Part shown: in pieces, positions 20,219 through 47,735 of the stretch
Position numbering within the stretch: position 1 is the first letter of the stretch
Layout of the letters: every line of letters starts with the position of its first letter
DNA from: a virus
DNA: 64,000 nt
Virus record (IMG/VR): IMGVR_UViG_3300028392_000050
Location: 1-64,000 of that record
Strand: one strand, 5' to 3'
The notes under the pieces: model-generated
The model's input: the letters and a program-made list of their open reading frames with translations, nothing else
The model's database searches: none
What the model was told of the DNA's origin: nothing
Program-made: the position numbers and the translations under genes

Positions 20219-20219
20219 C

Positions 20220-35423: not shown

Positions 35424-36808
35424 TAGTTAGCCACCTCGTCTGCCTCAAGTGAAACATCAACAGCGATACCAAAGCCACTAGCAATACCAGCCTTAGCAGT
35501 ATCAAAGACCAATTTAACAGCCTCTCGTTCATCATCAGAGAACGAGTTTAAATAGGTTTCTGTCGCATACTCAAGGTCTATGTTCTTTACATTTTTAACA
35601 AAAGCCTCAAGACCTCTGGTAGAGATAGGGGTATCTATCTCGCCTCGTTCGTGCTGTTCTCGCAACTGATTAGCAACCTCTAGCAAGGTAGCGTTTCCGA
35701 TAAGTTTTTTCTCAATAGCCTTATCGTAACCAAACTCCCACTTGTGGGCAAACCTATCTTTCCACGCTTGGTTCATTGGGCGAGAGCCACGATAGTTAGG
35801 GTTGTGGTCACCGATAACAACTAGGTCTGGGTGAGCCTTGATTACCTCACCACCATTTTCTAGCAGTTGGATTTCTCGTCTATCGTCTAGCAGACCGAAC
35901 AGAACTGTTGTAACTCGCTCTGGCATAAAATCTATTTCGTTTAATAGCAATACGCCACCATTACGAACTAGGTCTGTAACAGGTCCGTCTTGCCACTTAA
36001 ACACGCCAGCCTGTTCTGTCGGTATCCACATACCGAATAGGTGGCTCGGCTCTAGTCCAATGTTGCTAGAGATGTTGTAGTAGCGATAGCCCCTAGAACT
36101 TGCCCAAGCGATAACACACATAGTCTTACCTGACCCAGCGTGACCTCTGATTAGTAGGTTCTGGTTATTTGCCTTGATGATGTCCAACATCTCAAAGTCC
36201 GTTCTGGTCTTGGTAATTTTGCGATTTAGGTAACGCTTAGCCCAAGAAATATCTGGCACGCTTGCCATTTCCATTTGTGCCTGTGGTCTTGCCATAGTTG
36301 GTACTGGGGCTGGTGTTGTCGGGGCAGTCATTACAGGAACGAAAGCGACAGCCAACTCCTCGTCTGCCTCAACCTCAACTGGGGTAATCGGGTTAATGGT
36401 TACAGGGTTGGTTCTGCGATTATCAGACACATAGTTAGATAGGCTCTGGTCACCAGCGATTAGTCTGTCGGTTAGTTCTGTAATCCAAACCTGATGTGCT
36501 TTGGCATTTTTTTCTGGGTTATACACATAGTCACCAGTAAGGTTGGTAAGCCTACTTGATAGGGCTGTTACATTTCCGTATTTGGCATTAAATACATCTG
36601 TGCTGTTGATAGCAACTGCGACAGGTAGGTTCTGTGCGACAGTCTGGGGCAAGGTAGTTACATCTGTGACCTTGTGCCAAGCCTGACCTCTGCCACGCTG
36701 TCCGTTAGATACTCGGTGAAATACTAAGACCTCACTCTCGGTTGGAACAATTAGGGTCTGTTCCTTTCCGTCTGTTACTGGGGTAGATACCATAAGGGCA
36801 ATACTCAT
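35423..36808 (-). CDS. MoxR/CbbQ/CobS-type AAA+ ATPase
   Basis: GHAGSGKT, WQDGP, LLLNEID, NPNYRG, DRF, ISTR; coupled to the vWA gene. Confidence 0.88.
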   Translation of the reverse strand: MSIALMVSTPVTDGKEQTLIVPTESEVLVFHRVSNGQRGRGQAWHKVTDVTTLPQTVAQNLPVAVAINSTDVFNAKYGNVTALSSRLTNLTGDYVYNPEKNAKAHQVWITELTDRLIAGDQSLSNYVSDNRRTNPVTINPITPVEVEADEELAVAFVPVMTAPTTPAPVPTMARPQAQMEMASVPDISWAKRYLNRKITKTRTDFEMLDIIKANNQNLLIRGHAGSGKTMCVIAWASSRGYRYYNISSNIGLEPSHLFGMWIPTEQAGVFKWQDGPVTDLVRNGGVLLLNEIDFMPERVTTVLFGLLDDRREIQLLENGGEVIKAHPDLVVIGDHNPNYRGSRPMNQAWKDRFAHKWEFGYDKAIEKKLIGNATLLEVANQLREQHERGEIDTPISTRGLEAFVKNVKNIDLEYATETYLNSFSDDEREAVKLVFDTAKAGIASGFGIAVDVSLEADEVAN

Positions 36809-37055
36809 AAGATTTGATACTTTCTGTTAGTTGTGGGGCAGACCTCTTGCCTGACCTCTCTCTCCGAGTTTATGCGATAGGCACGACATTTCCTAGAGCC
36901 ATAAACCTAAATAAGCATTTATTAACCTATTGTTCATCTTTGCCTATAAAGTATCGGCAGCCGATAGAAATTACGGGGCTTTGCTTATTTCTTTGTTTCT
37001 ACCTCATAGAGAGAGAACTAATAGAGAGTAAGGGATAGGTGTAGCCCTAGTGACT

Positions 37056-37093
37056 AACAGGCTAGTAACTAACCAACAGGCTAGTAACTAACC
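37056..37093. repeat. 19-bp perfect tandem repeat x2
   Basis: AACAGGCTAGTAACTAACC twice. Confidence 0.9.
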
Positions 37094-37353
37094 AAGTTCG
37101 CAAGGTAGCCCACATCTGGGCTTACCCCTGCCTCTCTTTCTGTATTGCTAGGCAGTAGCCTAGCCATTACCACAGTTTCGGCTATTTAGCAAGGATTATA
37201 ACGAAATCGTTATAATCTCTCTATTCGGCTCATAGCATACTCTCTCTCTATAGTCAATAGGGTATCTCTCTCTGTTATGAAATCGTTATAACCAAGATTA
37301 ACCGGCCGTTCTCTCTCTGTTAACCAGCTGTTTACTTTGGTGTGGTAAGCGTT

Positions 37354-37447
37354 TTGTTGCGTTGGTAGCCTTTTAGCCTTAACTATGCGATTGAGCGTAG
37401 CGAGCACGCACGGCACGGCTAAGGCTAAAAGGCTACCAACTCAACAA
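37354..37447. repeat. palindromic element 0 (12-mer core flipped)
   Basis: TTGTTGCGTTGGTAGCCTTTTAGCCTTA...TAAGGCTAAAAGGCTACCAACTCAACAA. Confidence 0.9.
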
Positions 37448-37685
37448 TTTCGGGTATGCGAAAGCCCCCAAGCCAGAGAGGGGGCTTGGGGGCTTTGGGC
37501 TGGTCACAGAAAGGGGAAAAAGACCAGCCTATAGCGAGGTGGGACAAATCACCTGCTAATTCTTATGTTTTCCTTGTCTATACCACTTTAGAAAGTCGGT
37601 GGCACAGGTAATACATAGAGCAGTTGGGGCTACAGTTGGGTCTGTAAGTTGTGTTTTACAGACAAAACACTTCTTACCAGTATAA

Positions 37686-38024
37686 CTACCCATTGTTATC
37701 TAGTTTCATCTTACTAGGGTCATAGATACCTAGCAAGGCGAGTAATTCATTAGGGGTCATTAGTAGAGCATAACACAGTTTAGGCAAGAAATACAAAGGC
37801 ATTGTGCCGTTTCCCTTGAGGTAATTGCCTACAGTTCCAGCAGTTACGCCAAAGTTATTACGCCTACAAAAGTCGGCTAGGGACTTATACCCTAGGCTCT
37901 TGTATCTAGCCTCTATTAGTTGTTGCTTACGCTTGCGTTCTTGGGTGTTCCAGTCGTAATAGGCTTGTATTTTCTCATAACGAGTTTCGGCTGGCTCATT
38001 TGGGTCATACTTCGGGTATTCCAT
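37686..38024 (-). CDS. Cro/CI-type HTH protein, paralogue of 32615-32857
   Basis: YKSLGYKSLADFC...GTVGNYLKG...LCYALLMTPNELL. Confidence 0.8.
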   Translation of the reverse strand: MEYPKYDPNEPAETRYEKIQAYYDWNTQERKRKQQLIEARYKSLGYKSLADFCRRNNFGVTAGTVGNYLKGNGTMPLYFLPKLCYALLMTPNELLALLGIYDPSKMKLDNNG

Positions 38025-38132
38025 TATTTACTCCTCATTGTAATTAGTCGTGCTTGTAGTCGGGATAGGGCAATAATGGCTTTACTTAGTAGCCTTATTG
38101 CTATGTGGCGTGGGCTTGGGTTGTATCTGTGC

Positions 38133-38852
38133 TTACTCATTACAGCACTCCAAGTTACAGTAACCACGCAAATCCATACCTAAAGCGTGGGTGATTTCAG
38201 GCTCGTTCTCATAGAACTTATCGCCGTCTAGCCATTGAGCCTCATAAGCAAAGCAGTCGCTTTCGTCAATACTGGACAGGTTTATAGTGATGTCGGGGTA
38301 TTGGCTAGCCAAGTGGTCTAATGCCTCTACTGGTGGTGACCACGCACTTTCTAGGTGATAGGTAATCTCTAGAGAAACTGGCATAGTATCTGGGTCAGTA
38401 TCGCCCATCTCACCTGCGAGAATAGTAGGCATTTCATAGACAATAGAGGCTTCGTCTGTTATCTCCCACTTAGTTCCCCAGTTACGGCAGTTCCAGTTAT
38501 ACCAGTCGTCGCTGGTCTTGCGTTCCTCTAGTATCTTGACGAGAGCCTGATTAGCGTCAAAAGGCGTGCTGGTCTTATCAGCCTTGTCTATCTCTACCAA
38601 GTCAGGGTCAGCCTTTACAATGCTGTCAAAGGCTTTCTTACCCCTCTCTAGGTAGGTATCAAGGTTACTAGGCTTTACTATGTTCCATAGCAAGAATACT
38701 CCCTCAACCTGCTCGGCTGGGGTAGGTTCGCCTTTCCAGTTAGTTTCTCCAGCCCAAGGTGTAGTATAAGGCTTAGCAAGCCTATCCTTTATTGCCATTA
38801 CTGTATCGTAGTCACCAACGATAGTGACTTTACTGCTAGCCCAATTCGGCAT
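38133..38852 (-). CDS. DUF1281/YubB-like ferredoxin-fold protein
   Basis: MPNW start, WYNWNCRNWGTKW, SAWSPP motifs. Confidence 0.75.
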   Translation of the reverse strand: MPNWASSKVTIVGDYDTVMAIKDRLAKPYTTPWAGETNWKGEPTPAEQVEGVFLLWNIVKPSNLDTYLERGKKAFDSIVKADPDLVEIDKADKTSTPFDANQALVKILEERKTSDDWYNWNCRNWGTKWEITDEASIVYEMPTILAGEMGDTDPDTMPVSLEITYHLESAWSPPVEALDHLASQYPDITINLSSIDESDCFAYEAQWLDGDKFYENEPEITHALGMDLRGYCNLECCNE

Positions 38853-38959
38853 TAGTCGTTCTCCTCAATACAAGTGTGGTTATTCCAGTCTTGTTCGGCT
38901 GTGTCAGAATAGTTATCCACTATAAATCCACAATGGTTACATTTAGTCCAGCGTGCCAT
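38852..38959 (-). CDS. 35-aa Cys/His peptide (not in ORF track)
   Basis: MARWTKCNHCG...HTCIEEND; TAATG coupling on both sides. Confidence 0.6.
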   Translation of the reverse strand: MARWTKCNHCGFIVDNYSDTAEQDWNNHTCIEEND

Positions 38960-39210
38960 TAGTCGTTCTCCTCTTTCTGTTTGATAAGGAACTCTAGGTC
39001 ATCAGCAAGTTCATACCCAGTCTGGGTGAACTCAATGTGACCTGATAGTGTTTGCTGTGCCTCTCCAATGAACTCTGACCATACTCTCTCTACATCTGCT
39101 CTATCTAAGCCTGTATCTACAAAGTAGGTCTTGTCCCAATACTCCACAATGATTTCATCATCTAGAGCATTGTCTTTTAGTATCTGTGCGATTAGGTCTT
39201 TTACCTTCAT
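38959..39210 (-). CDS. small acidic protein
   Basis: AGAAAGG RBS; first gene of its unit. Confidence 0.7.
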   Translation of the reverse strand: MKVKDLIAQILKDNALDDEIIVEYWDKTYFVDTGLDRADVERVWSEFIGEAQQTLSGHIEFTQTGYELADDLEFLIKQKEEND

Positions 39211-39289
39211 CTCTCAATTCCTTTCTGTGAATTGTAATACGAGTTTATACCTATCTCTCTCTAAATAGCAACTCTCCTGCGTGTATTCC

Positions 39290-39319
39290 AGGTAAACATT
39301 AGATGAACAACAGGTGAAC
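39290..39319 (-). promoter_or_regulatory. 11-bp-pitch GTTCACCT-type boxes
   Basis: AGGTAAAC-att-AGATGAAC-aac-AGGTGAAC on +. Confidence 0.8.
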
Positions 39320-39326
39320 AGCCCTG

Positions 39327-39401
39327 CCAACTCAACAATTTAGCCATTTAGCCATCCGACGATCCGGAGAAGATGGCTAAATGGCTAAATTGTTGAGTTG
39401 G
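39327..39401. repeat. palindromic element 1
   Basis: CCAACTCAACAATTTAGCCATTTAGCCATC-loop-GATGGCTAAATGGCTAAATTGTTGAGTTGG. Confidence 0.95.
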
Positions 39402-39512
39402 GAAAGCCCCCTAGCGTGATGAATGAAACGCTAGGGGGCTTTTATGCCAGAGAACCAGTCTGGCTTGGGTTGAGGGGCTGGGCTGGGAGAACCAGCCCCT
39501 CAAGTCTGTTGG

Positions 39513-40073
39513 TTAGTCTACCTCTACCTCTGTGTCGGAAATGTCAAATCCGTAACCAGCCTCGTCAAGGTCGCTGTTGGTAACGGTAGCTTCGGCTGTA
39601 ATGTTTAGGTCGCTCTCAATGTCGTCCCAGTCATAACCTCTAGGGGCTGTTACCTCTAGTGAGCCAGTAATGGTAATGTTTACTGTCTTAGTGACTTCTG
39701 CCTCAATGTCAAAGATTTCGCATAGTTCGTCACGAACTTCCTCGTCAATGTCGTTCCAGTTGTCGTCAAGAAATGTCTCAAGTTTGGTGACTTTCCTGAT
39801 TAGTTCCTGCCACTTCACATACCACTCTTGCTTTTCGGTTTCTAAGCTTTTTAGGTTTTTGTGTAGGTGAGTGAGTTCGTGGCGAATAGTTACCTTGTCG
39901 CCCCCAGTTACCCAGCCGTTATCTATGTAGCCATAGAACTTTACTTCTAGGTCTAAGACATCTGCTAGTGGCTTTACTGGTGTTGTTGCTAGTTCGGTCA
40001 GACCTGCCTCTGCGAGTTTTTCCTCAACAGTTAGTTCTGGCTTTGGTTCTTGGTTCTCTTGGTTCTCATACAT
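39513..40073 (-). CDS. acidic hypothetical protein
   Basis: Start moved to MYENQE after AGAAAGAGAG RBS; D/E-rich C-terminal half. Confidence 0.75.
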   Translation of the reverse strand: MYENQENQEPKPELTVEEKLAEAGLTELATTPVKPLADVLDLEVKFYGYIDNGWVTGGDKVTIRHELTHLHKNLKSLETEKQEWYVKWQELIRKVTKLETFLDDNWNDIDEEVRDELCEIFDIEAEVTKTVNITITGSLEVTAPRGYDWDDIESDLNITAEATVTNSDLDEAGYGFDISDTEVEVD

Positions 40074-40153
40074 AGTAATCTCTCTTTCTGTAGGTTGTGT
40101 ATTGCTATGTATTACTATTATGGCAGTTGGGGGTGGCAAAACCCAAATCCTAG

Positions 40154-40194
40154 AGGCAAACTCTAAGTAAAGCTTTTGTGAACAACAGGTAAAC
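40154..40194 (-). promoter_or_regulatory. four 11-bp-pitch boxes
   Basis: AGGCAAAC, AAGTAAAG, TTGTGAAC, AGGTAAAC at 40154/40165/40176/40187. Confidence 0.75.
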
Positions 40195-40201
40195 GGATCT
40201 C

Positions 40202-40268
40202 CCAACTCAACAAAGCCCAAAGCCCGATCTTTATTAGGGGCTTCGGGCTTTGGGCTTTGTTGAGTTGG
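40202..40268. repeat. palindromic element 2
   Basis: CCAACTCAACAAAGCCCAAAGCCCGA-loop-TCGGGCTTTGGGCTTTGTTGAGTTGG. Confidence 0.95.
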
Positions 40269-40352
40269 CACGAAAAAACCCCCCAGCGAGAACCTTGGGA
40301 GTTCGCTGGGGGGCTGGTATTATCGGGCTAGACACCAACACACCCGATAAGT

Positions 40353-40703
40353 CTAACTAGGCTGGTGAGCCTCTGGCTCTACCTCTACCCACTCGCCGTC
40401 TATGAACTGTTTTTCGTTCACTAACTCACTAATAGCCCCTGAGTATAGGTCATAGTAAAAGGCGTATAAATCAACCTTTTGTAAATCCTCTATTGTTTCG
40501 GCACTGTCATAGCCAAACTCTTTCCACCTGTTTTGATACTCAAAGTCTAGGCTAGCCCAGTCTAATTGAATGTTAGCCGTATAAACTGGAACTGCTCCGT
40601 CGGCGTATTCGTGAGCGATGTCCTCGGGATAAGGTCGCCCTAAAATCCACTCTCGGTTATCCCAGATTTCTTGGTTGATTTCTGTTTCTGTCCAAAGTGC
40701 CAT
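40353..40703 (-). CDS. Ocr (T7 gp0.3)-like DNA mimic, copy 1
   Basis: 116 aa, acidic; EDIAHEYADGAVPVYTANI aligns with the recalled Ocr segment DAIHMAADNAVPHYYADI. Confidence 0.65.
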   Translation of the reverse strand: MALWTETEINQEIWDNREWILGRPYPEDIAHEYADGAVPVYTANIQLDWASLDFEYQNRWKEFGYDSAETIEDLQKVDLYAFYYDLYSGAISELVNEKQFIDGEWVEVEPEAHQPS

Positions 40704-40729
40704 TTGCTGGTTCTCTCTTTCTGTTTGGT

Positions 40730-40819
40730 GTAGCCCCTTTGGCTACTCTCTTATACTAATGCCACCTAATGACTTATTAGGTAGCGAGCTGATGAATGTC
40801 AGGTTAATATTAGGTAAAC
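40730..40819 (-). promoter_or_regulatory. cassette promoter: four boxes, -10 TAGTAT, 5' hairpin
   Basis: Boxes at 40779/40790/40801/40812; minus strand GCTACCT-N20-TAGTAT-AAGAGA-GTAGCCAAAGGGGCTAC. Confidence 0.75.
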
Positions 40820-40826
40820 GGATCAA

Positions 40827-40903
40827 GCCAACTCAACAAAAGCCATTTAGCCAACCCTCTTATCTAGTGGGTGTTATGGCTAAATGGCTTTTGTTGAGTT
40901 GGC
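40827..40903. repeat. palindromic element 3
   Basis: GCCAACTCAACAAAAGCCATTTAGCCA-loop-TGGCTAAATGGCTTTTGTTGAGTTGGC. Confidence 0.95.
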
Positions 40904-40951
40904 AAAAACCCCCTAGCAAGTCAGGTTGCTAGGGGGCTGGTCTTTGCCGGT

Positions 40952-41317
40952 TTATCCGTAAGTCAGTTCACCGAAAATCGCATACTGGATAACCATATCG
41001 CCAAAGCAAGCGTCAGCGTCCTCAATGTCTAGGGAGTAAGTGCCACAGTGCTTCTGCCCTGCGTTTAGAGCCAACTGGTATCCCTTTGCTAGTTGCGCTA
41101 GCGTAACGGTGTGCCACTTGTCTTCTTCCTCGTCATACAACTTAAAGTCCTGTGGGTTAGGCTCGTAGTCTGGCAAGTGCCAAAGGCTAATCTTGCTACC
41201 ATCAGGCTTACGGATTTTACTCGCCCAGTAGGTAATACCTGCGCCATCACAGCCCCAGATACCTTCCCACAAATCATCAAGCGAAACCTCTACGCTTACA
41301 GTGATTACCTCGCTCAT
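40952..41317 (-). CDS. acidic hypothetical phage protein
   Basis: GITYWA...DADACFGDMVIQYAIFGELTYG. Confidence 0.75.
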   Translation of the reverse strand: MSEVITVSVEVSLDDLWEGIWGCDGAGITYWASKIRKPDGSKISLWHLPDYEPNPQDFKLYDEEEDKWHTVTLAQLAKGYQLALNAGQKHCGTYSLDIEDADACFGDMVIQYAIFGELTYG

Positions 41318-41424
41318 TAGTATCCTGCCTTTTCTAGAATAGCAAGCACAGTATCTACCTGCTCGTCGGTTAGTTTCTCTATTGCTTCGGTGTTGATTAC
41401 ACTCTCGCCGAATAGATTTTCCAT
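41317..41424 (-). CDS. 35-aa acidic peptide (not in ORF track)
   Basis: MENLFGESVINTEAIEKLTDEQVDTVLAILEKAGY; AGAAAGAGAGAACC RBS. Confidence 0.7.
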   Translation of the reverse strand: MENLFGESVINTEAIEKLTDEQVDTVLAILEKAGY

Positions 41425-41444
41425 TGGTTCTCTCTTTCTTTTAG

Positions 41445-41533
41445 GTAGCCCTTTTGGCTACATACTCACTCTATACCACAGGCGACCAGACAAGGTAGCC
41501 GGTGAGTAAATGGCAAATGAACGTTAGGTGAAC
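41445..41533 (-). promoter_or_regulatory. cassette promoter
   Basis: Boxes at 41493/41504/41515/41526; GCTACCT-N19-TAGAGT; GTAGCCAAAAGGGCTAC hairpin. Confidence 0.75.
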
Positions 41534-41539
41534 AAAGCA

Positions 41540-41614
41540 GCCAACTCAACAAATAGCCAACAGCCATACATCCGATCAGGATTAGTATGGCTGTTGGCTA
41601 TTTGTTGAGTTGGC
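41540..41614. repeat. palindromic element 4
   Basis: GCCAACTCAACAAATAGCCAACAGCCATAC-loop-GTATGGCTGTTGGCTATTTGTTGAGTTGGC. Confidence 0.95.
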
Positions 41615-41682
41615 ATAAAAAAGCCCCAGAGCGAAAGGGGGGTCGCTCTGGGGCTGTGGTTAGAGTAGGGAAATGAGAGAAC

Positions 41683-41937
41683 CTACTCTAAGTTTGTTTC
41701 GTTGTTTAGTATGTAAAGCACATACAAAGTTTCTGTTTTTTCTGTATGAACAAAAGTATACTTAGGAAACTTTCTGCGTAAATAAGTTATTTCGGTTCGC
41801 TTTACAGGGTTATTGTAAATAGCCCATTGGTTCGGGTGTTTTGTAAGTTCTGTTAGAAACGGCTCAATGTTTCTAATAGTGCTTCCTGCTCTGCCTTTTT
41901 TTGGAACTAGGCTTTCGTCAATAAACTTGATTTCCAT
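41683..41937 (-). CDS. hypothetical protein
   Basis: GAGGAGG RBS; coupled. Confidence 0.65.
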   Translation of the reverse strand: MEIKFIDESLVPKKGRAGSTIRNIEPFLTELTKHPNQWAIYNNPVKRTEITYLRRKFPKYTFVHTEKTETLYVLYILNNETNLE

Positions 41938-42131
41938 TAGTTTTCCTCCTCATTTTCGCCAAAGGCTTCTCTGGCTTCTTCCATTAGACCCATAGCATCT
42001 CGTAACGCTTGGTCTAGGCTGGTGAAACCCTGTATCCTAATCGGCTCAATAGGTTCTAAGCCTTTGTAGTCGTTACAGGTTGGGCATACTGCTTGCTCGG
42101 TGTGTGTTCCGTCAAATACACAAACGCTCAT
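41937..42131 (-). CDS. small zinc-binding acidic protein
   Basis: C...CPTCNDYKG; coupled. Confidence 0.65.
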   Translation of the reverse strand: MSVCVFDGTHTEQAVCPTCNDYKGLEPIEPIRIQGFTSLDQALRDAMGLMEEAREAFGENEEEN

Positions 42132-42409
42132 TAGTTCTCCTCATCCTCGATAATGGTGTTATTGGTGTTGTCTGGCTCGTCGTGAGGTTCGCCACACTCA
42201 TCACATTTTTCTTCACGACACTCAAAGCAAGAGCCGTCTAGGTCTAGTTCTCGTTCGCAACCTCCACAGACCTCTTCGAAGTCGATAGACTCGGTGCCAG
42301 AGTAGTAAGAGTTCAGGTCAGACAAAAACGCCTTCTCTGCCTCTTCTTGTGTGTTGCCTTCTACTACACCCTCGTATTCATAGAGGGCTTTGATTTTGTA
42401 AAATGCCAT
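42131..42409 (-). CDS. acidic Cys-rich protein
   Basis: Start moved to MAFYKI after AAAGAGAGAACC RBS; CGGC, CFEC, CDEC. Confidence 0.7.
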   Translation of the reverse strand: MAFYKIKALYEYEGVVEGNTQEEAEKAFLSDLNSYYSGTESIDFEEVCGGCERELDLDGSCFECREEKCDECGEPHDEPDNTNNTIIEDEEN

Positions 42410-42436
42410 TTGGTTCTCTCTTTCGTTTCTCATTTA

Positions 42437-42525
42437 TGTAGCCTTTTGACTACTCTCTAATACTAGGGTATAGGGCACGCCCACAGGTAGCCGTCAGGTA
42501 AAAGCCAGATGAACAACAGATGAAC
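42437..42525 (-). promoter_or_regulatory. cassette promoter
   Basis: Boxes at 42485/42496/42507/42518; GCTACCT-N19-TAGTAT-TAGAGA-GTAGTCAAAAGGCTAC. Confidence 0.75.
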
Positions 42526-42533
42526 AGATCGCC

Positions 42534-42600
42534 CCAACTCAACAAACAACAGCCAGCCAGCTTTTATATAGCTTTGGCTGGCTGTTGTTTGTTGAGTTGG
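42534..42600. repeat. palindromic element 5
   Basis: CCAACTCAACAAACAACAGCCAGCCA-loop-TGGCTGGCTGTTGTTTGTTGAGTTGG. Confidence 0.95.
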
Positions 42601-42681
42601 CAAGAAAAAGCCCCCCTGCTCCTAGATTTAGCAGGGGGGCGGTGTTGGCGAGGGGATGAATGGAAACCTCACCAAGTCTAT

Positions 42682-43050
42682 TTAGTCCTCGCCGAAGAAC
42701 TCCTCGGCTGTGAGGGTGTGAGAGCGTTGAGTTTCTTTGATACGCTCCTGCTCATCACGCTCCTTAACTAACGCCTCAATTTCGGTGTAATAGTGTTCTT
42801 GGTAATAAATCCAGAGGTCAAGGTGCATTAGGGTATAAATGCTGTCTGGCAGAGTGTCGGTCATTTCATTAAACCTATTTAGATACTCAGTAGGTAATGA
42901 GCGCCACTCGTCTAGGATTTCACTGTGCCACACTGGCACGCCACTATCGGCGTATTCACCTGCCAAGTCTTGTGGATAAGTCTGCTCCAATAGGTATTCT
43001 TTATCAGCTAAGATTTCTGCCTTAAACTGCTCTGGTGTATAAAGTGCCAT
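42682..43050 (-). CDS. Ocr-like DNA mimic, copy 2
   Basis: 122 aa, acidic; QDLAGEYADSGVPVWHSEI; clear paralogue of 40353-40703. Confidence 0.6.
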   Translation of the reverse strand: MALYTPEQFKAEILADKEYLLEQTYPQDLAGEYADSGVPVWHSEILDEWRSLPTEYLNRFNEMTDTLPDSIYTLMHLDLWIYYQEHYYTEIEALVKERDEQERIKETQRSHTLTAEEFFGED

Positions 43051-43075
43051 TTTGTAGTTCTCTTTCTCTCAATTT

Positions 43076-43165
43076 GTAGCCCCTTTGACTACTCTCTAAC
43101 TCTACACCCCTAGGGGGACTTACTAGGTAGCGACGAGGTGAATGTCAAATGAACAGCAAGTGAAC
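43076..43165 (-). promoter_or_regulatory. cassette promoter
   Basis: Boxes at 43125/43136/43147/43158; GCTACCT-N20-TAGAGT-TAGAGA-GTAGTCAAAGGGGCTAC. Confidence 0.75.
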
Positions 43166-43173
43166 AGATCGCT

Positions 43174-43243
43174 CCAACTCAACAAAGCCACAAAGCCATA
43201 CACCGATCTAGGTAAGTATGGCTTTGTGGCTTTGTTGAGTTGG
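43174..43243. repeat. palindromic element 6
   Basis: CCAACTCAACAAAGCCACAAAGCCATAC-loop-GTATGGCTTTGTGGCTTTGTTGAGTTGG. Confidence 0.95.
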
Positions 43244-43300
43244 CATAAGAAAACTCCCCTGCCAGTTTCGGCAGGGGAGTCCTTTTCTTGAGAGAGAAAC

Positions 43301-43879
43301 TTATCCCTCGACCTCGAGCAATACCTCGAAGCCGTATGCGTCTTTTATCCAATCAGCGTTTAGCGTGAATAACTTTTCTACAACCTCAGAATAACCGAAA
43401 TCTTCATCAGTAATCCACTCAGTTCTAGTTTCGCCGTCATTGGCAGTAAATACCTTAGCGTATTCTACGCTAACCCGATAAACCTCACCAGCGAACCTAG
43501 CGTCAAAATCCTCAGCGACAGACTCTAATCCCTTAGCATTCCATTCCTTTCTCAAGTCATAGATAACCATTGTGTGCCATTCGCCTTGACTAAATCCCTT
43601 TAGTCCATAGATAAGGAACGGAATACCCTCGCCTGTGAAGTAATCGCTAACGGCGTCCTCAATTAGAGTGCCGTCCGAAACAATTTCCTCAATTTCAGTC
43701 TTGGCGTCATCATCAGTGGAATAACGGGTGAAGTTGTTTGGAGCGTGGAGTGTCTGAACGCCTAAGCCAATATTGCGAGCAACCTGATCGATAGTGTCAT
43801 AGTCCTCTTCATAATCAGCAACAACTCTCACGCTTGGGCTAATTTGGAATACTTGTTCTCTTTTTGTTTCTACTAACAT
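43301..43879 (-). CDS. acidic hypothetical protein
   Basis: 192 aa, D/E-rich; GFSQGEW and FAGEVY motifs. Confidence 0.75.
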   Translation of the reverse strand: MLVETKREQVFQISPSVRVVADYEEDYDTIDQVARNIGLGVQTLHAPNNFTRYSTDDDAKTEIEEIVSDGTLIEDAVSDYFTGEGIPFLIYGLKGFSQGEWHTMVIYDLRKEWNAKGLESVAEDFDARFAGEVYRVSVEYAKVFTANDGETRTEWITDEDFGYSEVVEKLFTLNADWIKDAYGFEVLLEVEG

Positions 43880-43954
43880 AATTACTACTCTCTCTTGTGA
43901 GCAAGTCCTCTGTGCCTTGCTTCACTTACTACAATACACCACGCCAAGCGTGTT

Positions 43955-43995
43955 AGCTAAACGCTAGGTTGATGTTAGGTGAACACTAGGTGAAT
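43955..43995 (-). promoter_or_regulatory. four 11-bp-pitch boxes
   Basis: AGCTAAAC, AGGTTGAT, AGGTGAAC, AGGTGAAT at 43955/43966/43977/43988. Confidence 0.75.
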
Positions 43996-44001
43996 AAGCC
44001 T

Positions 44002-44076
44002 GCCAACTCAACAAATTAGCTAATTAGCCGATCTAAGGTTACACCGGCGGCTAATTAGCTAATTTGTTGAGTTGGC
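44002..44076. repeat. palindromic element 7
   Basis: GCCAACTCAACAAATTAGCTAATTAGCCG-loop-CGGCTAATTAGCTAATTTGTTGAGTTGGC. Confidence 0.95.
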
Positions 44077-44129
44077 GCAAAGTTCACCCACTGTTCATCT
44101 CTGAACAGCAGGTGAACTCTGGCTGAACT

Positions 44130-44423
44130 TTAGTCCTCTGCTGGCACGCCGTTCTGGTAGTCCTCAATGCTGTCGTAAGATACGCCCTCAACTCTAATTG
44201 CCCCGTGGCTGTGGATGAGGTAATCAGTTTCACTTGACATCATAAGAACTTGCTGGAGGTTAGCAATTAGAGTTCTAGCCGCTTCACGGGTAATCTCAAC
44301 CTGAACTGCTGACGGCTGAACTAGCCCGTCCTCTAGGTGATAGAGGTTGCGAATGGTTAGGCTAATGTCAGCGTTTCCAGTGTGTCTGCTATCATTTAGC
44401 AGGATGTTAGTTTCTACTCTCAC
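44130..44423 (-). CDS. hypothetical protein
   Basis: AGAAAGAGAACC RBS, GTG start. Confidence 0.7.
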   Translation of the reverse strand: MRVETNILLNDSRHTGNADISLTIRNLYHLEDGLVQPSAVQVEITREAARTLIANLQQVLMMSSETDYLIHSHGAIRVEGVSYDSIEDYQNGVPAED

Positions 44424-44570
44424 TTGGTTCTCTTTCTATTTTGGGCAAACTCTCTTGGTTTGCCTCACTTACTAACTTACAGGATTACACCTAAACAATA
44501 GGTATTAGTTTGATGAACGGCAGATGAATTAAGAATTAACCTGCTGTTAACCTAGGGTTCACCCCCCGTT

Positions 44571-44632
44571 CAACTCAACAAAATAGCTGGCAACAAACAA
44601 CGTTGCCTAGCTATTTTAAATTGTTGAGTTGG
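44571..44632. repeat. palindromic element 8 (imperfect)
   Basis: CAACTCAACAAAATAGCTGGCAAC-loop-GTTGCCTAGCTATTTTAAATTGTTGAGTTGG. Confidence 0.85.
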
Positions 44633-44709
44633 CGGCTGTTCACCAAAAGTTCATCTAATGTTAACTTTCCCCGAAGGGAGGAGGGCTGGTTTCCCAGCCC
44701 TCCTGTTTG

Positions 44710-45069
44710 CTAAGCTTCTAGCCCTGCGATTACCTGTTCTTTGGTATCTGTTGGTTCTACCCCTGGCTTGCTGTAATCAGCAAGTAGGCAATCCTCATCA
44801 CAGATAACTCTAACCTGTGCCCTGCTCCACAGCCCTTGGTGAGTATTACACCACCAATCAAATCCGTCTGCCTTGTCGCCTGTAAAGTAATCGCTTAGGT
44901 TTCTGTCCAAGGCTGGTATCCAAATTTCTGGGAATTTCCAAGGCTTTTCCAAGGCATAAGTATCAAACTTTAAACCTCGTGCCTTGTAAGCGTTTAGAAT
45001 TGAGCCGATTAGGTTGAGTAGTTCTAATGAACCTAGTTCATCAATTCTTTCTAGATAACTTTTTTCCAT
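44710..45069 (-). CDS. hypothetical protein
   Basis: GAAGGA RBS; YALEKPWKF motif. Confidence 0.7.
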   Translation of the reverse strand: MEKSYLERIDELGSLELLNLIGSILNAYKARGLKFDTYALEKPWKFPEIWIPALDRNLSDYFTGDKADGFDWWCNTHQGLWSRAQVRVICDEDCLLADYSKPGVEPTDTKEQVIAGLEA

Positions 45070-45129
45070 TTGTTTGTCCTTCTTGTTTGGAGGTTTGGGG
45101 GAGGTTGCCCTCCCCCGTCGCCTGTTTGA

Positions 45130-45396
45130 TTAGTTAGTTCTAGTGGTTAGGGAAATTGGAAATTGTGAGTAAGTTCCCTCAGTACAATAGGTTAGTTTTC
45201 CCCAAGGTGTGTGGATAGAGTAGTTGTATCCCTCGCAGTTAGGCTCGTGGTTCTTGTCGCAGTTTGTCTCCAAGTCAATTTTTACGGGTTCTACAAACTC
45301 AATGTGGTTATTTTCCCAAATTGCCATTACATAGCCATACCATAGTTCATTTTCTGGTCCAGAGGTAATGTGTTGTTCGGTAATTCTAATTTCCAT
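45130..45396 (-). CDS. hypothetical protein
   Basis: AGAGAGAGAACC RBS. Confidence 0.7.
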   Translation of the reverse strand: MEIRITEQHITSGPENELWYGYVMAIWENNHIEFVEPVKIDLETNCDKNHEPNCEGYNYSIHTPWGKLTYCTEGTYSQFPISLTTRTN

Positions 45397-45534
45397 TTTG
45401 GTTCTCTCTCTAATCTGGAGAGGTTCTCTTGCCCTCTCTCAATTACTACATTACAGGATACTTATTTGGATCTATACCAATTCAGATGAACGTCAGGTAA
45501 ATTAATTGTTCACCTAATGTTCACCTAACCCCCC

Positions 45535-45623
45535 GCCAACTCAACAATTTATGGCAACGAAGTTGCCTATAAATTGTCAAAAAAGCCTGTTAGCTATGCT
45601 ACAGGCTTTTTTGTTGAGTTGGC
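45535..45623. repeat. palindromic element 9 (branched, two inner hairpins)
   Basis: GCCAACTCAACAA...[GGCAAC-gaa-GTTGCC][AAAAAAGCCTGT...ACAGGCTTTTTT]...GTTGAGTTGGC. Confidence 0.9.
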
Positions 45624-45668
45624 AAGGCTTAGCCAGCCGGGGTCTCCGGCTGGCTTGCCTAATCCCTC

Positions 45669-45998
45669 CTAGTGTCCTGACTTGTAGAGTTCTAGATACT
45701 GCTCAATGGCTTGGAGCAAAGCGTTGTGGTTGCCCTCGTAGCGTTCCACTAGATACGCAAAACGCTTAGCCCAAAGTTTGCGGCGTTCGTCTTGGATGTA
45801 GTAAACGGCAGCTGAATAGCCCTGCTCCTCTAGAGTGTGGTAGCCGACATCTTCGCAAGTCCAGCAAGCGTTTTCCATGTCGTAGCCAGCAGTGAACTTG
45901 CCGTGGCAGCAAGAGCCTTGGGCGATACGCTCACGCAAGTATGCGATTTGAGCGTTCTTGACGGCAATGGCTTCACGGGCGATTTGTGCGTTTAGCAT
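45669..45998 (-). CDS. Cys-containing hypothetical protein
   Basis: AGAGAGAACC RBS; CCHG...CWTCED. Confidence 0.7.
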   Translation of the reverse strand: MLNAQIAREAIAVKNAQIAYLRERIAQGSCCHGKFTAGYDMENACWTCEDVGYHTLEEQGYSAAVYYIQDERRKLWAKRFAYLVERYEGNHNALLQAIEQYLELYKSGH

Positions 45999-46138
45999 TT
46001 GGTTCTCTCTACACCCACGCCCCTTGCGTGGTGTGTCCTCTCAGTCTAGCAACCTAGAAATAGATCACCCTCTCTCTAAGATGAACACTTGGCAAACAAC
46101 TTAGATCATTTTTATTCATCTAATGTTCACCTAGGGGC

Positions 46139-46232
46139 CCAACTCAACAAAGGCTATTGACAGCAAAGCTGCCTAATAGCCTTATAATACCTAGGCTATG
46201 TATATCATAGCCAGGTATTATTGTTGAGTTGG
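46139..46232. repeat. palindromic element 10 (branched, two inner hairpins)
   Basis: CCAACTCAACAA[AGGCTATT...AATAGCCT][ATAATACCT..GGCTATG...CATAGCCAGGTATTAT]TGTTGAGTTGG. Confidence 0.9.
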
Positions 46233-46302
46233 CGAGGGTCTCCTCTGCTCCCCGAGAACGCCAAGACCAGCCCCCATCGCTGGGGGCTGGCTGGCTGATT
46301 AC

Positions 46303-46548
46303 TTACATAACTTTGTGTCCGCAATCACACTTTTCATCGTGGTCGCCACCCAGTGAGCCTTCTGGCAAGCCTAGACTACGCTCCAACAAGTCTAGCCCAG
46401 TCCAGAAGGACTCACGCCATCCTGGGCTGTCATCCCAGTCCTGTTGGTGATAGTAGTCTAGAGCATACTCTATCTCGTTCACTAACTGATTAGCGGTTTT
46501 TGTAATTGGCTGGTCGGATAGGGTTGCCCAGATTTGTTCTTTTATCAT
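46303..46548 (-). CDS. small acidic protein
   Basis: AAGGA RBS; ATGA overlap. Confidence 0.65.
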   Translation of the reverse strand: MIKEQIWATLSDQPITKTANQLVNEIEYALDYYHQQDWDDSPGWRESFWTGLDLLERSLGLPEGSLGGDHDEKCDCGHKVM

Positions 46549-46649
46549 TTTGTGTCCTTATCTATTAGGTGATCTTGTGTGTATTGGTAAAGCCTGCCTA
46601 GTAAAAATGATACTACTAAGCCTAGTACTACAAGCCAGTGTGTTGGCAT
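46545..46649 (-). CDS. 34-aa membrane peptide (not in ORF track)
   Basis: MPTHWLVVLGLVVSFLLGRLYQYTQDHLIDKDTK; AAAGGA RBS. Confidence 0.6.
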   Translation of the reverse strand: MPTHWLVVLGLVVSFLLGRLYQYTQDHLIDKDTK

Positions 46650-46708
46650 TTGTTTGTCCTTTGTTTAGGGGTTCAGGGGGGGATTGCTCCCCCCCGTCGC
46701 CTGTTTGT

Positions 46709-46903
46709 TTATTCTGCTGGTTCTACTTTAGCCAAGGTGATTAGTACTGTGATTAGTTCTTGGCGTTCTGCTGGTGTTAGTTCCAATGCGATTTCCACAA
46801 CTGTACCAGAGCCGTTAGCCCCGAGAGTGTGAACTAGCAGGTTGAACATTCCCTTGTCGCCGAAGGTGAAACCCCCGAAGGTATAACGCTTTACATTTTC
46901 CAT
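46709..46903 (-). CDS. hypothetical protein, first gene of the minus-strand block
   Basis: Start moved to MENVKR after AAAGGGG RBS. Confidence 0.65.
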   Translation of the reverse strand: MENVKRYTFGGFTFGDKGMFNLLVHTLGANGSGTVVEIALELTPAERQELITVLITLAKVEPAE

Positions 46904-46962
46904 TTTGTTGCCCCTTTGTTTTGTGTGAGCCTTGTTGCTCACAAATACAGACTAAGGCTCTT

Positions 46963-47070
46963 AGGTAAACAAACAATGCTAGTTAGGTGAACGTCAGGTG
47001 AACAATTCCAAGATCGTTAGGTTAACAGCAGGTGAACAGGGGGGGTAGGTTAGGTGAACGCCAGGTAAAC
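46963..47070 (-). promoter_or_regulatory. dense cluster of AGGTRAAC-type boxes
   Basis: Seven boxes, mostly as 11-bp-pitch pairs. Confidence 0.75.
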
Positions 47071-47161
47071 AGGCCGGCAGGACGCAGATACGATTGACGA
47101 CCCAAAAAAGTTAGGCAGTAGCCTAACTTCGTGCCCAAAGGGCGGGGGGAGGCGGCGCAGC

Positions 47162-47200
47162 CGTTACGGCTTCGTTACCAAATCGTTACTAAATCGTTAT
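47162..47200. promoter_or_regulatory. four CGTTAY repeats at 11-bp pitch
   Basis: CGTTAC at 47162, 47173, 47184 and CGTTAT at 47195. Confidence 0.75.
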
Positions 47201-47372
47201 AATTCAAATCACCACGTGCTATGCAAACTGTATTAAATATTTGATTATCTCTTTGTTTTAATAGGAATACCTATTTAGCAGTGCTAGCTGCGCCGCCCTA
47301 TGCAAAAATTACCCTCTGGATATTCTCAGCAATTAATGCTATAATCACCCACTTATCATTTATACTAAAGTA

Positions 47373-47735
47373 ATGGCAAACATTTCTAATAAGCAAAGAC
47401 GTAAGATAGCTAAATCACAAACTATTATGACTCAGCGGGGTTTTAAAGCTGATAAAGAGGCTATCCTAGGCAATCCTGACGGCCCTGTTAACCAAAAATA
47501 CAATAAAATGTGGTCTAAAAAAACTAGGGCAACAGAAAATGAGTTTAACAACGCTGAGACTACTATGGGTAGAACCGGGCATTTTAGAGAAGGTCTAAAC
47601 TTATTTAAAACTGCTCAAGCAAAATCAAACATTAGAACCGATGCGATGTTTAACCCTAAGTTTGAAAAAATGGCAGACAAGGCTTATAACCCTGGTCCTA
47701 AGTCAGGATTCCTAAGTAAGGCGAAGAATAAGTAA
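47373..47735 (+). CDS. basic hypothetical protein, probably leaderless
   Basis: TATACT 6 nt before ATG. Confidence 0.65.
   Translation: MANISNKQRRKIAKSQTIMTQRGFKADKEAILGNPDGPVNQKYNKMWSKKTRATENEFNNAETTMGRTGHFREGLNLFKTAQAKSNIRTDAMFNPKFEKMADKAYNPGPKSGFLSKAKNK

Follow-up and report, generated by a model that had tools for sequence, protein, structure and literature searches.

Putative nick sites paired around hairpin spacers in the terminator-promoter cassettes of a freshwater phage

The early regions of T4-type phages contain promoter-early stem-loops (PeSLs), which, according to published accounts, consist of only a promoter and a short stem-loop in which G-T pairs are tolerated (Arbiol et al. 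2010, PMC2839356; Comeau et al. 2014, PMC4122927). In T5-like, phiKMV-like and tf/LUZ24-like phages, the DNA carries site-specific nicks with a 9-20-nt consensus; as described in the source consulted, these sites are solitary and all on one strand (PMC3517423).

We analyzed a 64,000-nt stretch (the window) of the 87,293-bp genome of an uncultured freshwater phage, which contains an array of palindromic elements between small early genes. The array resembles the PeSL regions, as these are described, in its small ORFan genes, its plastic early region and its composite terminator-plus-promoter linkers, and relatives differ by insertion, loss or replacement of units via linker recombination (PMC2839356; PMC4122927). 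Unlike the PeSL described in those accounts, it adds a 63-94-nt, Watson-Crick-only palindrome with invariant 12-mer ends between terminator and promoter, and its promoters have, in place of a sigma-70 -35 box, direct repeats phased at 11 bp. As in the described nicks of T5, phiKMV-like and tf phages, a short, conserved, asymmetric word marks a precise bond, and lineages carry close variants of it; unlike them, the sites flank a palindrome as inverted pairs that occupy both strands and are concentrated in one early-gene array, and we infer breakage from contig ends rather than from biochemistry (PMC3517423).

Here we describe the anatomy of the elements, the Watson-Crick-only covariation of their arms, the mosaicism of the cassettes they separate, and an accumulation of contig ends at a single bond of the 12-mer, which the preliminary description had missed. 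We propose that the elements are strand-specific nick sites, paired around a hairpin spacer, and that they belong to PeSL-like terminator-promoter cassettes undergoing reassortment among relatives, an account to which we give an even chance of being right.

Eleven palindromes at terminator-promoter joints

All eleven inverted repeats previously reported were found at 37354-46232, with coordinates agreeing within 1 nt, and none was present elsewhere in the genome. Their paired ends are CCAACTCAACAA/TTGTTGAGTTGG. We refer to the order of the two 12-mers as type A or, for the opposite order (TTGTTG.. at the 5' side, CCAAC.. at the 3' side), type B. The elements, to which no strand is assigned, are as follows.

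37354-37447: element 1, type B, TTGTTGCGTTGG ... CCAACTCAACAA, 94 nt, one 12-mer mismatch; last in the array, upstream of the AAA_5/VWA operon promoter
39327-39401: element 2, type A, 75 nt, perfect 30-nt arms, core TAGCCATTTAGCCAT
40202-40268: element 3, type A, 67 nt, loop GATCTTTATTAGGGGCTTC
40828-40902: element 4, type A, 75 nt
41541-41613: element 5, type A, 73 nt
42534-42600: element 6, type A, 67 nt
43174-43243: element 7, type A, 70 nt
44003-44075: element 8, type A, 73 nt
44570-44632: element 9, type A, 63 nt, bulged stem with an inner GGCAAC..GTTGCC hairpin, first base T
45536-45622: element 10, Y-branched, 87 nt; one branch terminator-like (A6-GCCTGT..ACAGGC-T6), the other GGCAAC-GAA-GTTGCC
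46139-46232: element 11, Y-branched, 94 nt, first of the array along transcription

The near-invariance of the 12-bp ends claimed earlier holds in general, the exceptions being the reversed order and single mismatch at 37354 and the initial T at 44570; the last two copies are branched, as had been noted. With at most one mismatch allowed, the window has 25 occurrences of the 12-mer where 0.42 would be expected; 0 of 100 shuffles reached this number, and 22 of the 25 are the eleven element pairs. The whole genome holds 20 exact copies, all within 37436-46232, and no occurrence of a reversed 12-mer control pattern. Eight of its ten perfect inverted repeats (arm at least 16, loop at most 60) are array elements. 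Freshwater metagenomes yielded 120 distinct element copies, and a search of 185,579 prokaryote genomes yielded none.

The arms are 26-35 nt long and fully complementary in seven pairs. Folded as single-stranded DNA, the eleven elements reach -21.6 to -36.4 kcal/mol (z-scores -8.7 to -17.7), and for each of them 0 of 200 shuffles match the native energy. The earlier view that structure rather than inner sequence is conserved stands insofar as the arms vary yet stay complementary; it does not extend to the doublet (A)GCC(A)-N3-4-(A)GCC(A), which is conserved within the arms (58-copy alignment). Many loops carry the polar motif GATC..TTATTAGGGG.

Each of the eleven elements follows a minus-strand unit's terminator and precedes the next unit's promoter, which bears repeats. 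The surrounding features are listed here.

37556-46942, minus strand: cassette array, about 21 small early genes in about 12 transcription units
39403-39442, minus strand: example of a terminator hairpin, G+C-rich, abutting the upstream side of element 2
39290-39319, minus strand: example of promoter direct repeats read from the sequence, GTTCACCT/GTTCATCT/GTTTACCT, 11 bp spacing
48456-48896, plus strand: HNH_3 endonuclease ORF (Pfam E = 2e-08; PHROG HNH families)

Across the family, an upstream hairpin (terminator) is present in 104 of 119 elements, versus 18 of 117 on the downstream side, and a T-run within 14 nt in 53 of 119 versus 2 of 117; the run stops 0-4 nt ahead of the element in 45 of these 53 cases. 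Just downstream, three direct repeats make up the upstream portion of the promoter that follows, and such repeats are enriched at 38-47 kb on the minus strand. The encoded proteins are nearly all ORFans, and 15 of the 21 are acidic (pI < 5). Profiles for Phage_integrase, Resolvase and Y1_Tnp found no match in the complete 87-kb genome (of 14 control genomes, 14, 13 and 10 gave matches, respectively), and a Pfam scan of 13 unannotated ORFs of at least 150 aa gave no match either.

Contig ends on one bond of a conserved 12-mer

Both 12-mers match the consensus in 103 of 136 elements. Judged by their variants, the 12-mers are conserved for sequence, because uncompensated changes in the pair outnumber compensated ones by 25 to 8; here the notion of a structure conserved without its sequence fails. 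CCAAC-NN-AACAA is retained in diverged lineages, and solitary exact 12-mers occur outside the array in two relatives (four in G005, one in G001), where by our own arithmetic about 0.01 per genome is expected. The two 12-mers of an element are about 39 to 82 bp apart, and their orientation can flip.

At least 15 assemblies contributed 93 distinct true contig ends (assembled contigs, not reads). Eighteen of these independent ends sit on a single bond, CCAA^CTCAACAA, always on that strand. Read inward, they start C-N-N-AACAA, the 3'-terminal 8 nt of the CCAAC strand (14 exact CTCAACAA, two CGCAACAA, one CTTAACAA and two CCTAACAA, minus one duplicate). No other partial stretch of either 12-mer strand, at 6-11 nt, opens any of the 93 ends, nor does TTGG. 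Contigs L038 and L047, for example, have their ends precisely at CCAA^C(T/G)CAACAA in the element 1 equivalent. The bond tracks sequence rather than hairpin geometry, since its distance to the outer edge differs, at 4 nt in eight type A cases and 8 nt in ten type B cases.

The pile-up, seen in assembled contigs, seems to reflect enzymatic nicking, with an assembler or library effect at this word also possible. Several assemblies, including that of the window's own genome, read through every element, so any breakage is partial. RuvC/Hjc-type resolvases cutting cruciforms had been suggested as the acting enzymes; the concentration of ends on one bond points instead to site-specific nicking. Nicking leaves the AGCC doublets, the polar loop motif and the GATC enrichment unaccounted for.

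An insulator or boundary function would read the same word differently: a phage or host DNA-binding protein would clamp the 12-mers, and perhaps the AGCC doublets, without cutting, and would block read-through or organize the region upstream of the next promoter, the contig ends being an artefact. The confinement of the elements to terminator-to-promoter joints, right after the T-run, agrees with this, as do the conservation of the 12-mer as sequence and the small HTH proteins encoded near the array (weak matches); lineage-wide 12-mer variants are expected from co-evolution with a binding factor. However, a protein bound to double-stranded DNA needs no perfect complementarity at freely varying arm positions, the spacing and orientation of the 12-mers are not fixed, and the 18 ends on one bond go unexplained. 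We consider a clamp unlikely.

The nick could instead prime replication. The inverted terminal repeat of parvoviruses such as AAV is a foldable, sometimes Y-shaped palindrome whose stem carries short direct repeats and is broken on one strand near its base; AAV has Rep-binding repeats and a nick site, CCAA^CT, on the complementary strand. By analogy, a nickase would cut the base of each element as at a terminal resolution site, and the early region would be over-replicated, in a rolling-hairpin-like manner, or resolved into hairpin-ended pieces. The elements would share with the AAV repeat a foldable and sometimes Y-branched form, stem doublets and a nick-like bond at the stem base, and geometrically the fold-back of either overhang would set CCAA-3' beside 5'-CTCAACAA. 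Unlike the AAV repeats, they lie inside the large double-stranded DNA genome of a phage, in about 11 copies, and the searches above found no HUH Rep (Y1_Tnp and the 13 ORFs). In 152 of 155 elements the palindrome goes no further than the 12-mer edge; it extends past that edge in just three, and thus fold-back (hairpin read-through) contigs are not seen. We regard a hairpin origin as distinctly improbable.

Mosaic cassettes among relatives

We distinguished 60 cassette types, 29 of them seen at least twice. Among these 29, ten have more than one upstream neighbor and nine more than one downstream neighbor, and, of the 27 cores that recur, 8 differ in their flanking genes on both sides. Single cores also move: one was exchanged between otherwise homologous flanks, the core of element 7 lying within the flanks of element 8 in relative G003, and the core of element 2 recurs with flipped 12-mers (type A versus type B) at the orthologous junction in G005. 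The proposal that the elements delimit cassettes is thus borne out, as content and order vary between relatives. Homology breakpoints are scattered across the whole intergenic module: 4 of the 79 fall inside an element, and 8 lie no more than 12 nt to the right of one. This spread speaks against exchange at a fixed, attC-like crossover; that breakpoints are not focused at the 12-mer is consistent with repair-driven exchange and does not prove it.

The core consensus of integron attC sites is RYYYAAC / GTTRRRY, and the type A ends contain ACTCAAC / GTTGAGT, in line with the AAC/GTT of its R''/R' boxes. Like attC, the elements are foldable, imperfectly sequence-conserved sites after each cassette, with variable inner sequence and some branched tips, and in three cases the same 12-mer variant is found in both arms facing one cassette, as folded sites for recombinase-driven excision and insertion of mosaic cassettes might show. 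Against such an integron-like system, the genome lacks an integrase, the perfect stems have no extrahelical strand-marking bases, the box order is reversed in type B, and no copy was found in the prokaryote genomes. As the preliminary description had concluded, this is no classical integron: tyrosine, serine and Y1-HUH recombinases are absent from the 87-kb genome, and each cassette supplies its own promoter and terminator. Taken with the spread of breakpoints, this makes recombinase-driven cassette exchange very unlikely.

Watson-Crick covariation of the cores and a proposed mechanism

Stem pairs in 93 distinct elements comprise 2254 Watson-Crick pairs versus 14 others, and these 14 are all located in the 12-mers, none in the cores. 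Across 24 pairs in 58 copies, changes are two-sided in 149 cells versus one-sided in 7. The core is preserved for pairing. This Watson-Crick-only pairing, the mostly two-sided changes, and the position after terminators and before promoters point to action as DNA rather than RNA, in agreement with the earlier suggestion.

If the hairpins instead acted in read-through transcripts, as RNase III processing or stability stems, their length would suit that enzyme, and G.T on the sense strand accounts for 10 of the 12 wobble-type mismatches, though mostly as one recurring variant (CCGAC). Yet 12 wobbles among 2268 stem pairs, with none in the cores, and the scarcity of one-sided changes argue against selection on RNA, and the elements follow intrinsic terminators. 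The Y-forms hold a terminator-like branch between their two 12-mers, so a terminated RNA could not form the basal stem; an Rfam search gave only sub-threshold microRNA-hairpin noise. We find this reading less credible still. Least credible is a selfish MITE- or REP-like palindrome colonizing intergenic spaces, which would fit the many intergenic copies with conserved inverted 12-bp ends, but not interiors that differ from copy to copy, exactly one element per joint in a single array, the lack of a visible target-site duplication at any of the 11 copies, the lack of a RAYT/Y1 transposase in the genome, or the absence from 185,579 prokaryote genomes.

In the nick-site account that we favor, each element would consist of two modules, a 12-mer recognition site and a palindromic core. 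The 12-mer would be an autonomous, asymmetric site at which one strand is broken between A4 and C5 (5'-CCAA^CTCAACAA-3'), a localized single-strand interruption as in phages T5, phiKMV and tf; with inverted 12-mers flanking each element, there would be one site per strand per element. The variable core would be a true DNA palindrome that folds back at some stage; in type A elements it may, once snapped back, serve as a cap or protection for the broken end.

The elements would form the joints between self-contained, PeSL-like early cassettes, and the nick, or a fork collapsing there, may create a double-strand end exactly at a cassette border. The phage encodes RecA, a Metallophos protein (Mre11-like phosphoesterase) and a Cas4-like exonuclease, which could repair such an end from another genome or element via conserved neighboring sequences. 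The HNH_3 protein is a candidate for cleaving the 12-mer; its C-terminal 88 aa are 85-97% identical beside the arrays of six other contigs, but small HNH genes near terminases usually serve packaging. Through such repair, whole cassettes and even single cores might reassort between relatives, a link between breakage and shuffling that we infer. If this account is true, the elements would be built-in hotspots of gene reshuffling.

Hairpin elements between early gene cassettes

The preliminary description had placed eleven palindromes at 37354-46232, and a census of their ends confirmed them. The 12-mer CCAACTCAACAA occurs 25 times in the window with at most one mismatch, against 0.42 expected, and 22 of these copies pair up as the inverted ends of 11 elements, numbered 1 to 11 by rising coordinate. 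The whole genome holds 20 exact copies, 10 forward and 10 reverse, all within 37436-46232. Arms are 26-35 nt long and perfectly complementary in 7 pairs, and single-stranded DNA folding beats shuffled sequence for 11/11 elements (z-scores -8.7 to -17.7). Eight of the ten long perfect inverted repeats of the genome are elements. We call the common order of the 12-mers, with CCAAC.. at the 5' end, type A, and the flipped order, with TTGTTG.. at the 5' end (element 1), type B; in Y-form elements the first branch resembles a terminator. A covariance model of type A, a check that had been proposed at the outset, recovers the 10 type A copies. Confined to that form, it gives no further hit across the whole genome, three distant relatives and the cultured phage LuckySocke.

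Features of the array and its surroundings
33354-36808, minus strand: AAA_5 ATPase and VWA-domain protein pair, directly downstream of the array
37195-37330, minus strand: promoter region of the AAA_5 operon, downstream of element 1, with TTATAACGATTTCGTTATAA-type palindromic operator-like repeats and GAGAGAGA runs
37354-46232: elements 1-11
37556-46942, minus strand: cassettes, about 21 small early genes in about 12 units
39290-47100, minus strand: GTTCAYCT direct repeats preceding every cassette (e.g. 39290-39319 and 46985-47090)
39361, 40196, 40226, 40821, 41574, 42527, 43167, 43205 and 44030, among others: GATC sites of the array region
47.1-46.95 kb (approximate): first promoter region of the array, with repeats and without an element
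47170-47215: repeat pair at the array head, similar to the operator-like repeats of the AAA_5 operon
48456-48896: HNH_3 endonuclease ORF

We read the anatomy of the joints off the sequence, taking the minus strand as the direction of transcription. A gene stop is followed by a G+C-rich hairpin, often with a T-run, then by the element, 5-8 nt, and three to four GTTCAYCT repeats at 11-bp spacing, the last of them near the position expected for a -35 box. A 17-nt gap separates the repeats from a TATAGA/TATTAG-like hexamer, which precedes a small leader hairpin, AGAGAGAACC and the ATG. Terminators, scored by script as hairpins and T-runs, lie on one side: a strong hairpin occurs within 53 nt upstream of 104/119 distinct elements versus 18/117 on the downstream side, and a T-run within 14 nt upstream of 53/119 versus 2/117, ending 0-4 nt ahead of the element in 45 of the 53. 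The array's first promoter region has the repeats and no element. Together with the side bias, this confines the elements to the joints between consecutive units. The repeats resemble actinobacterial PhoP (PHO box) units. A sigma-70 consensus scan gave no enrichment (12 found, 13.7 expected); the terminator consensus used with it was too strict for these terminators and picked up 1/11. Relatives of one lineage, that of the related genome G005, carry another repeat, TTATAAC..TGATAAC, at the same promoter position.

The window covers the first 64 kb of an IMG/VR virus record of 87,293 bp, whose ends overlap by 114 bp, so the assembly closes on itself. It encodes a contractile-tail phage (sheath, baseplate J and hub genes) with a T4-type large terminase, an SPP1-type portal, a class II ribonucleotide reductase, and replication and recombination genes comprising a DnaB-like helicase, a DnaG-like primase, PolA, SNF2, RecA, a Metallophos nuclease and a Cas4-like exonuclease. 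Among cultured phages, its terminase is closest to that of the Streptomyces BRock/LuckySocke group (54% identity). Positions 1-27,000 of LuckySocke hold no long perfect inverted repeats and the gene layout is different; hence we found no cultured model. No match to the array came up when 50,697 phage records were searched by megablast. Runs containing the array are freshwater metagenomes, and the Streptomyces-type terminase together with the PHO-box-like GTTCACC repeats hints at Actinobacteria as the host group. A 480-aa protein matches the PHROG family queuine tRNA-ribosyltransferase (E = 1.5e-34), and an ORF with a "nucleotide modification associated domain 1" is recorded as its neighbor (coordinates given, 27611-29053 and 20184-20657, both plus strand). 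By analogy with earlier work on DpdA-like phage genes, guanines in the phage DNA may be replaced by a 7-deazaguanine derivative.

Pattern scans found the element in 6 + 6 viral-contig stretches and 34 metagenome contigs; neither arrangement had a match in 185,579 prokaryote species genomes. Orienting the loci by coding strand, with two undecided loci (L022 and L024) left out of oriented counts, we obtained 120 distinct elements. Of these, 68 are simple type A, with CCAAC.. 5'-terminal on either strand, 22 are simple type B and 30 are branched. Farther relatives, reached through the neighboring AAA_5 protein, have the same elements with lineage-wide 12-mer variants CCAACCTAACAA, CCAACCCAACAA and CCAACACAACAA, and the three farthest (48-49% protein identity) have no such palindromes within 1.2-1.6 kb of sequence. 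The AAA_5/VWA pair itself is kept in 22 viral contigs at 48-96% identity, many of which stop about 400-570 nt upstream of the pair, at the last element. Literature matches to the 12-mer strings were unrelated eukaryotic primer lists only, and searches on phage cruciforms and early genes, BRock, freshwater actinophages, promoter-early stem-loop (PeSL) cassettes and T5 nicks found no description of the element.

Conservation of cores and 12-mers

The two parts of the element are conserved in different ways. The 93 distinct elements whose basal stem reaches 12 bp or more contain 2254 Watson-Crick pairs, 12 wobble-type pairs and 2 other mismatches; all 14 non-Watson-Crick positions sit in the 12-mers and none in the cores, and 79/93 stems are perfect. 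The covariation alignment comprises 58 simple type A copies; the other 10 of the 68 distinct ones were removed by hand for loop sub-hairpins or very short or long cores. Double changes occur at 11/24 pairs, with 149 cells changed on both sides versus 7 on one. An RNA stem under compensatory evolution would hold many G-U pairs, and a protein site on duplex DNA needs no symmetry at free positions. The Watson-Crick-only covariation therefore argues that the two arms of a core at some stage pair with each other in one and the same DNA strand, or that one arm is copied from the other. The initial view that the inner arms vary and stay complementary stands, and the cores are also constrained in sequence: they contain a doublet, (A)GCC(A)-N3-4-(A)GCC(A), whose two units co-vary within an arm in the 58-copy alignment.

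The 12-mers follow another rule. Both are consensus in 103/136 elements, and among variant pairs 25 are uncompensated versus 8 compensated. One junction between the same two genes is type A in the window and type B in G005, with the identical core TAGCCATTTAGCCAT; the 12-mers can thus flip as a module. The palindrome stops at the 12-mer edge in 152/155 elements. Relatives also have exact solitary copies away from the array: four in G005 (12590, 34970, 41361 and 75219; three inside open reading frames) and one in a second related genome, G001, against a calculated expectation of about 0.01 per genome; one ORF-internal G005 copy is conserved in G001. Taken together, uncompensated variation, flipping, the sharp palindrome edge and these solitary copies indicate that the 12-mer is an autonomous word kept for its sequence. 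Watson-Crick-strict cores beside sequence-conserved ends cleanly part what is kept for pairing from what is kept for recognition. In the window itself, solitary 12-mers with one mismatch lie at 2620-2631 (minus strand), 31745-31756 (plus) and 58825-58836 (minus), three copies being about chance level.

Type A loops have a further feature, a polar GATC-containing motif found in 27/68 of them versus 6.6 expected from shuffling, and in none of the type B or branched loops. GATC is seven-fold under-represented in the genome (31 observed, 213 expected). The stretch 39361-47012 has 15 of them, chiefly within element loops or adjoining the promoter-side 12-mer, and the N6_N4 DNA methylase gene (4233-4982) contains another four.

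Cassette exchange and comparison with known systems

We compared the order and content of cassettes among relatives. Gene content between elements differs among 6 relatives, and over 40 non-contained loci there are 60 complete cassette types, of which 29 were seen at least twice; 10 of these have more than one kind of upstream neighbor and 9 more than one kind of downstream neighbor, counts that are approximate because the families derive from crude ORF calls that include some spurious overlapping frames. The cassette order is thus not fixed. Cores move as well: 8/27 recurrent core types have different genes on both sides, and an element of the related genome G003 combines the flanks and 12-mers of window element 8 with the core of element 7. 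Exchange at a fixed attC-like point found no support, since breakpoints are not focused on one crossover. High-identity homology stops inside the element in 2/46 and 2/33 cases (4/79 overall); the other 75 stops fall in linker flanks or neighboring genes, with a small cluster 6-14 nt past the terminator-side 12-mer.

Contigs of four sequencing runs (X4-X7) were also compared with the array; their joints are mostly weak and we take them only as hints of strain variants. One skip, 45527->46166 (X4 and X6), has lost a cassette and replaced element 10 by an element-11-like copy, one side being only 24 letters long. Two others, 40738->43084 and 42421->43256, have sides of 25-45 with unknown letters between, and a loose contig end at 43166 continues into a different element. 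A backward joint, 45523->44571, considered as a mini-circle, which in PeSL systems forms by exchange between neighboring linkers, was set aside as a variant arrangement showing no evidence of a circle. In X4 and X5, within 36500-47500, summed contig word depth over approximately 37.6-47.1 kb exceeds that of the short flanks about 2-3 times, with boundaries that differ between the two runs; this depth does not measure copy number. Cassettes common to co-occurring strains, a collapsed terminal repeat or local over-replication could each raise the depth.

Cassette proteins are acidic, with pI < 5 in 15/21 and net charge down to -30. Judged from sequence, this is compatible with a DNA-mimic or anti-restriction role; the genes are ORFans, with no family match supporting such a role.

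PeSL cassettes of T4-type phages are among the closest known systems. In the portions of PMC2839356 and PMC4122927 available to us, these place a composite of terminator stem-loop and early promoter between ORFans, and the linkers delimit the indels and replacements that distinguish relatives; the array has the same arrangement, with putative promoters, and the same pattern of differences.

The integron attC analogy fares less well. The early remark that no integrase is present in the window holds for the complete genome: PF00589 (tyrosine recombinase) gave 0 matches at E<=1, with the control positive in 14/14 genomes, and Resolvase (serine recombinase) and Y1_Tnp/PF01797 (Y1 HUH) were absent, with controls positive. 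The suggested search of the rest of the genome for a tyrosine or HUH recombinase thus found none. The consensus of the attC R''/R' core sites is RYYYAAC / GTTRRRY, and ACTCAAC / GTTGAGT of type A fit it; in type B the boxes are swapped, and the CCAACACAACAA variant departs from the consensus. In attC sites extrahelical bases give strand choice, whereas the element stems lack them (79/93 perfect). Integron cassettes are promoterless and share a common promoter, whereas here each has its own upstream repeats, leader and terminator hairpin. On recombinase, stems and promoters the analogy thus fails, in keeping with the original statement that this is not a classical integron. Three other candidates were rejected: a REP/RAYT element (PF01797 absent, and neither arrangement in the 185,579 species genomes), a known RNA family (Rfam 15 gave only microRNA-precursor models below gathering, best 45.6 vs 70 bits, both strands alike), and, judged by ORF size and the annotation of the large ORFs, an N4-type hairpin promoter, which needs a virion or phage RNA polymerase that reads DNA hairpins (no such polymerase or very large ORF found; none >874 aa beyond 62 kb or >690 aa in the window, the large ORFs being tail, baseplate and similar proteins).

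Contig ends and a nick-and-repair proposal

Assemblies often end at the element, and they do so at one bond. Our set of 93 distinct true contig ends was drawn from the two ends of each of 36 full contigs, the first base of 17 loci that open at a contig end, and 5 further contig starts. Eighteen of them, from at least 15 assemblies, begin, read inward, with C-N-N-AACAA, the last 8 letters of the CCAAC strand; 14 are exactly CTCAACAA and the others are lineage variants. Other partial lengths (6-11) of the 12-mer, on either strand, account for none of the 93 ends, and TTGG starts none of them. In type A context (8 ends) the core follows, the contig retains the element, and 4 nt separate the break from the palindrome's outer edge; in type B context (10 ends) the flank follows, the contig lacks the element, and that distance is 8 nt. 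Hence the break follows the word and not the hairpin geometry. The tracking of the word, and a shared end sequence of only 8 nt, far below assembler word size, both speak against an assembly artefact of structure or graph. A search for fold-back (hairpin read-through) contigs found none, and the palindrome passes the 12-mers in 3/155 elements, one of which is a flanking operator repeat.

Read from contigs rather than reads, these ends would correspond to a 5' end at C5 of the CCAAC strand. One possible source is a set of staggered nicks, with library end repair filling in the overhangs of type A and trimming those of type B; another is a replication fork that runs off at a single nick. We consider it an even call that the 12-mer marks a spot where one particular strand is broken. 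The nearest parallels on record are the localized nicks of T5-like, phiKMV-like and tf phages, with a 9-20-nt consensus and, in the part of PMC3517423 available to us, no known function. Those sites resemble the present ones in having a short asymmetric consensus at a precise bond (here 18/93 ends at CCAA^C-N-N-AACAA, the putative breakage being read from contig ends). They differ in that all lie on one strand, whereas the exact copies here number 10 forward and 10 reverse. The hallmark of such a site in virion DNA is a ligatable 3'-OH/5'-P nick.

In our proposal, the nick-like sites, placed on both strands around a foldable spacer, belong to terminator-promoter linkers of the PeSL type. Breaks at the border of a cassette would be repaired by the phage recombination genes, with a co-infecting relative or another element as template, and the fold-back of the palindrome at a broken end could, we guess, cap it. 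Such break-repair would account for the cassette mosaic, the core swaps between 12-mers, breakpoints around rather than in the element, and the frequent assembly breaks. As to the acting enzyme, our guess would be the HNH_3 endonuclease ORF, the sole recognizable candidate. Its C-terminal part is conserved beside the arrays of 6 other contigs, and a search against solved structures returned nothing significant (best E = 0.6). A more elaborate version, which we regard as improbable, is a recombinase-free "nick-and-fold" system: a phage nickase would make staggered cuts in both strands at the inverted 12-mers, leaving 5' overhangs at type A and 3' overhangs at type B; on each side the palindrome would snap back into a hairpin-capped or ligatable end that resists host exonucleases; and these ends would prime copy-choice repair, yielding exchangeable early cassettes that are perhaps over-replicated locally.

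The element is best filed as joining two known kinds, PeSL-type cassettes and phage nick sites. To our knowledge, the reshuffling of early, host-directed genes by phages is understood in outline only, with PeSL homologous exchange as the main worked example, and we know of no function assigned in fifty years to the localized nicks of T5-type phages. The size of the family, with 120 distinct copies, lineage-specific site variants and two orientations, allows comparative work. If the proposal is true, nicks at cassette borders would be programmed break points that drive modular exchange, a function that can be tested.
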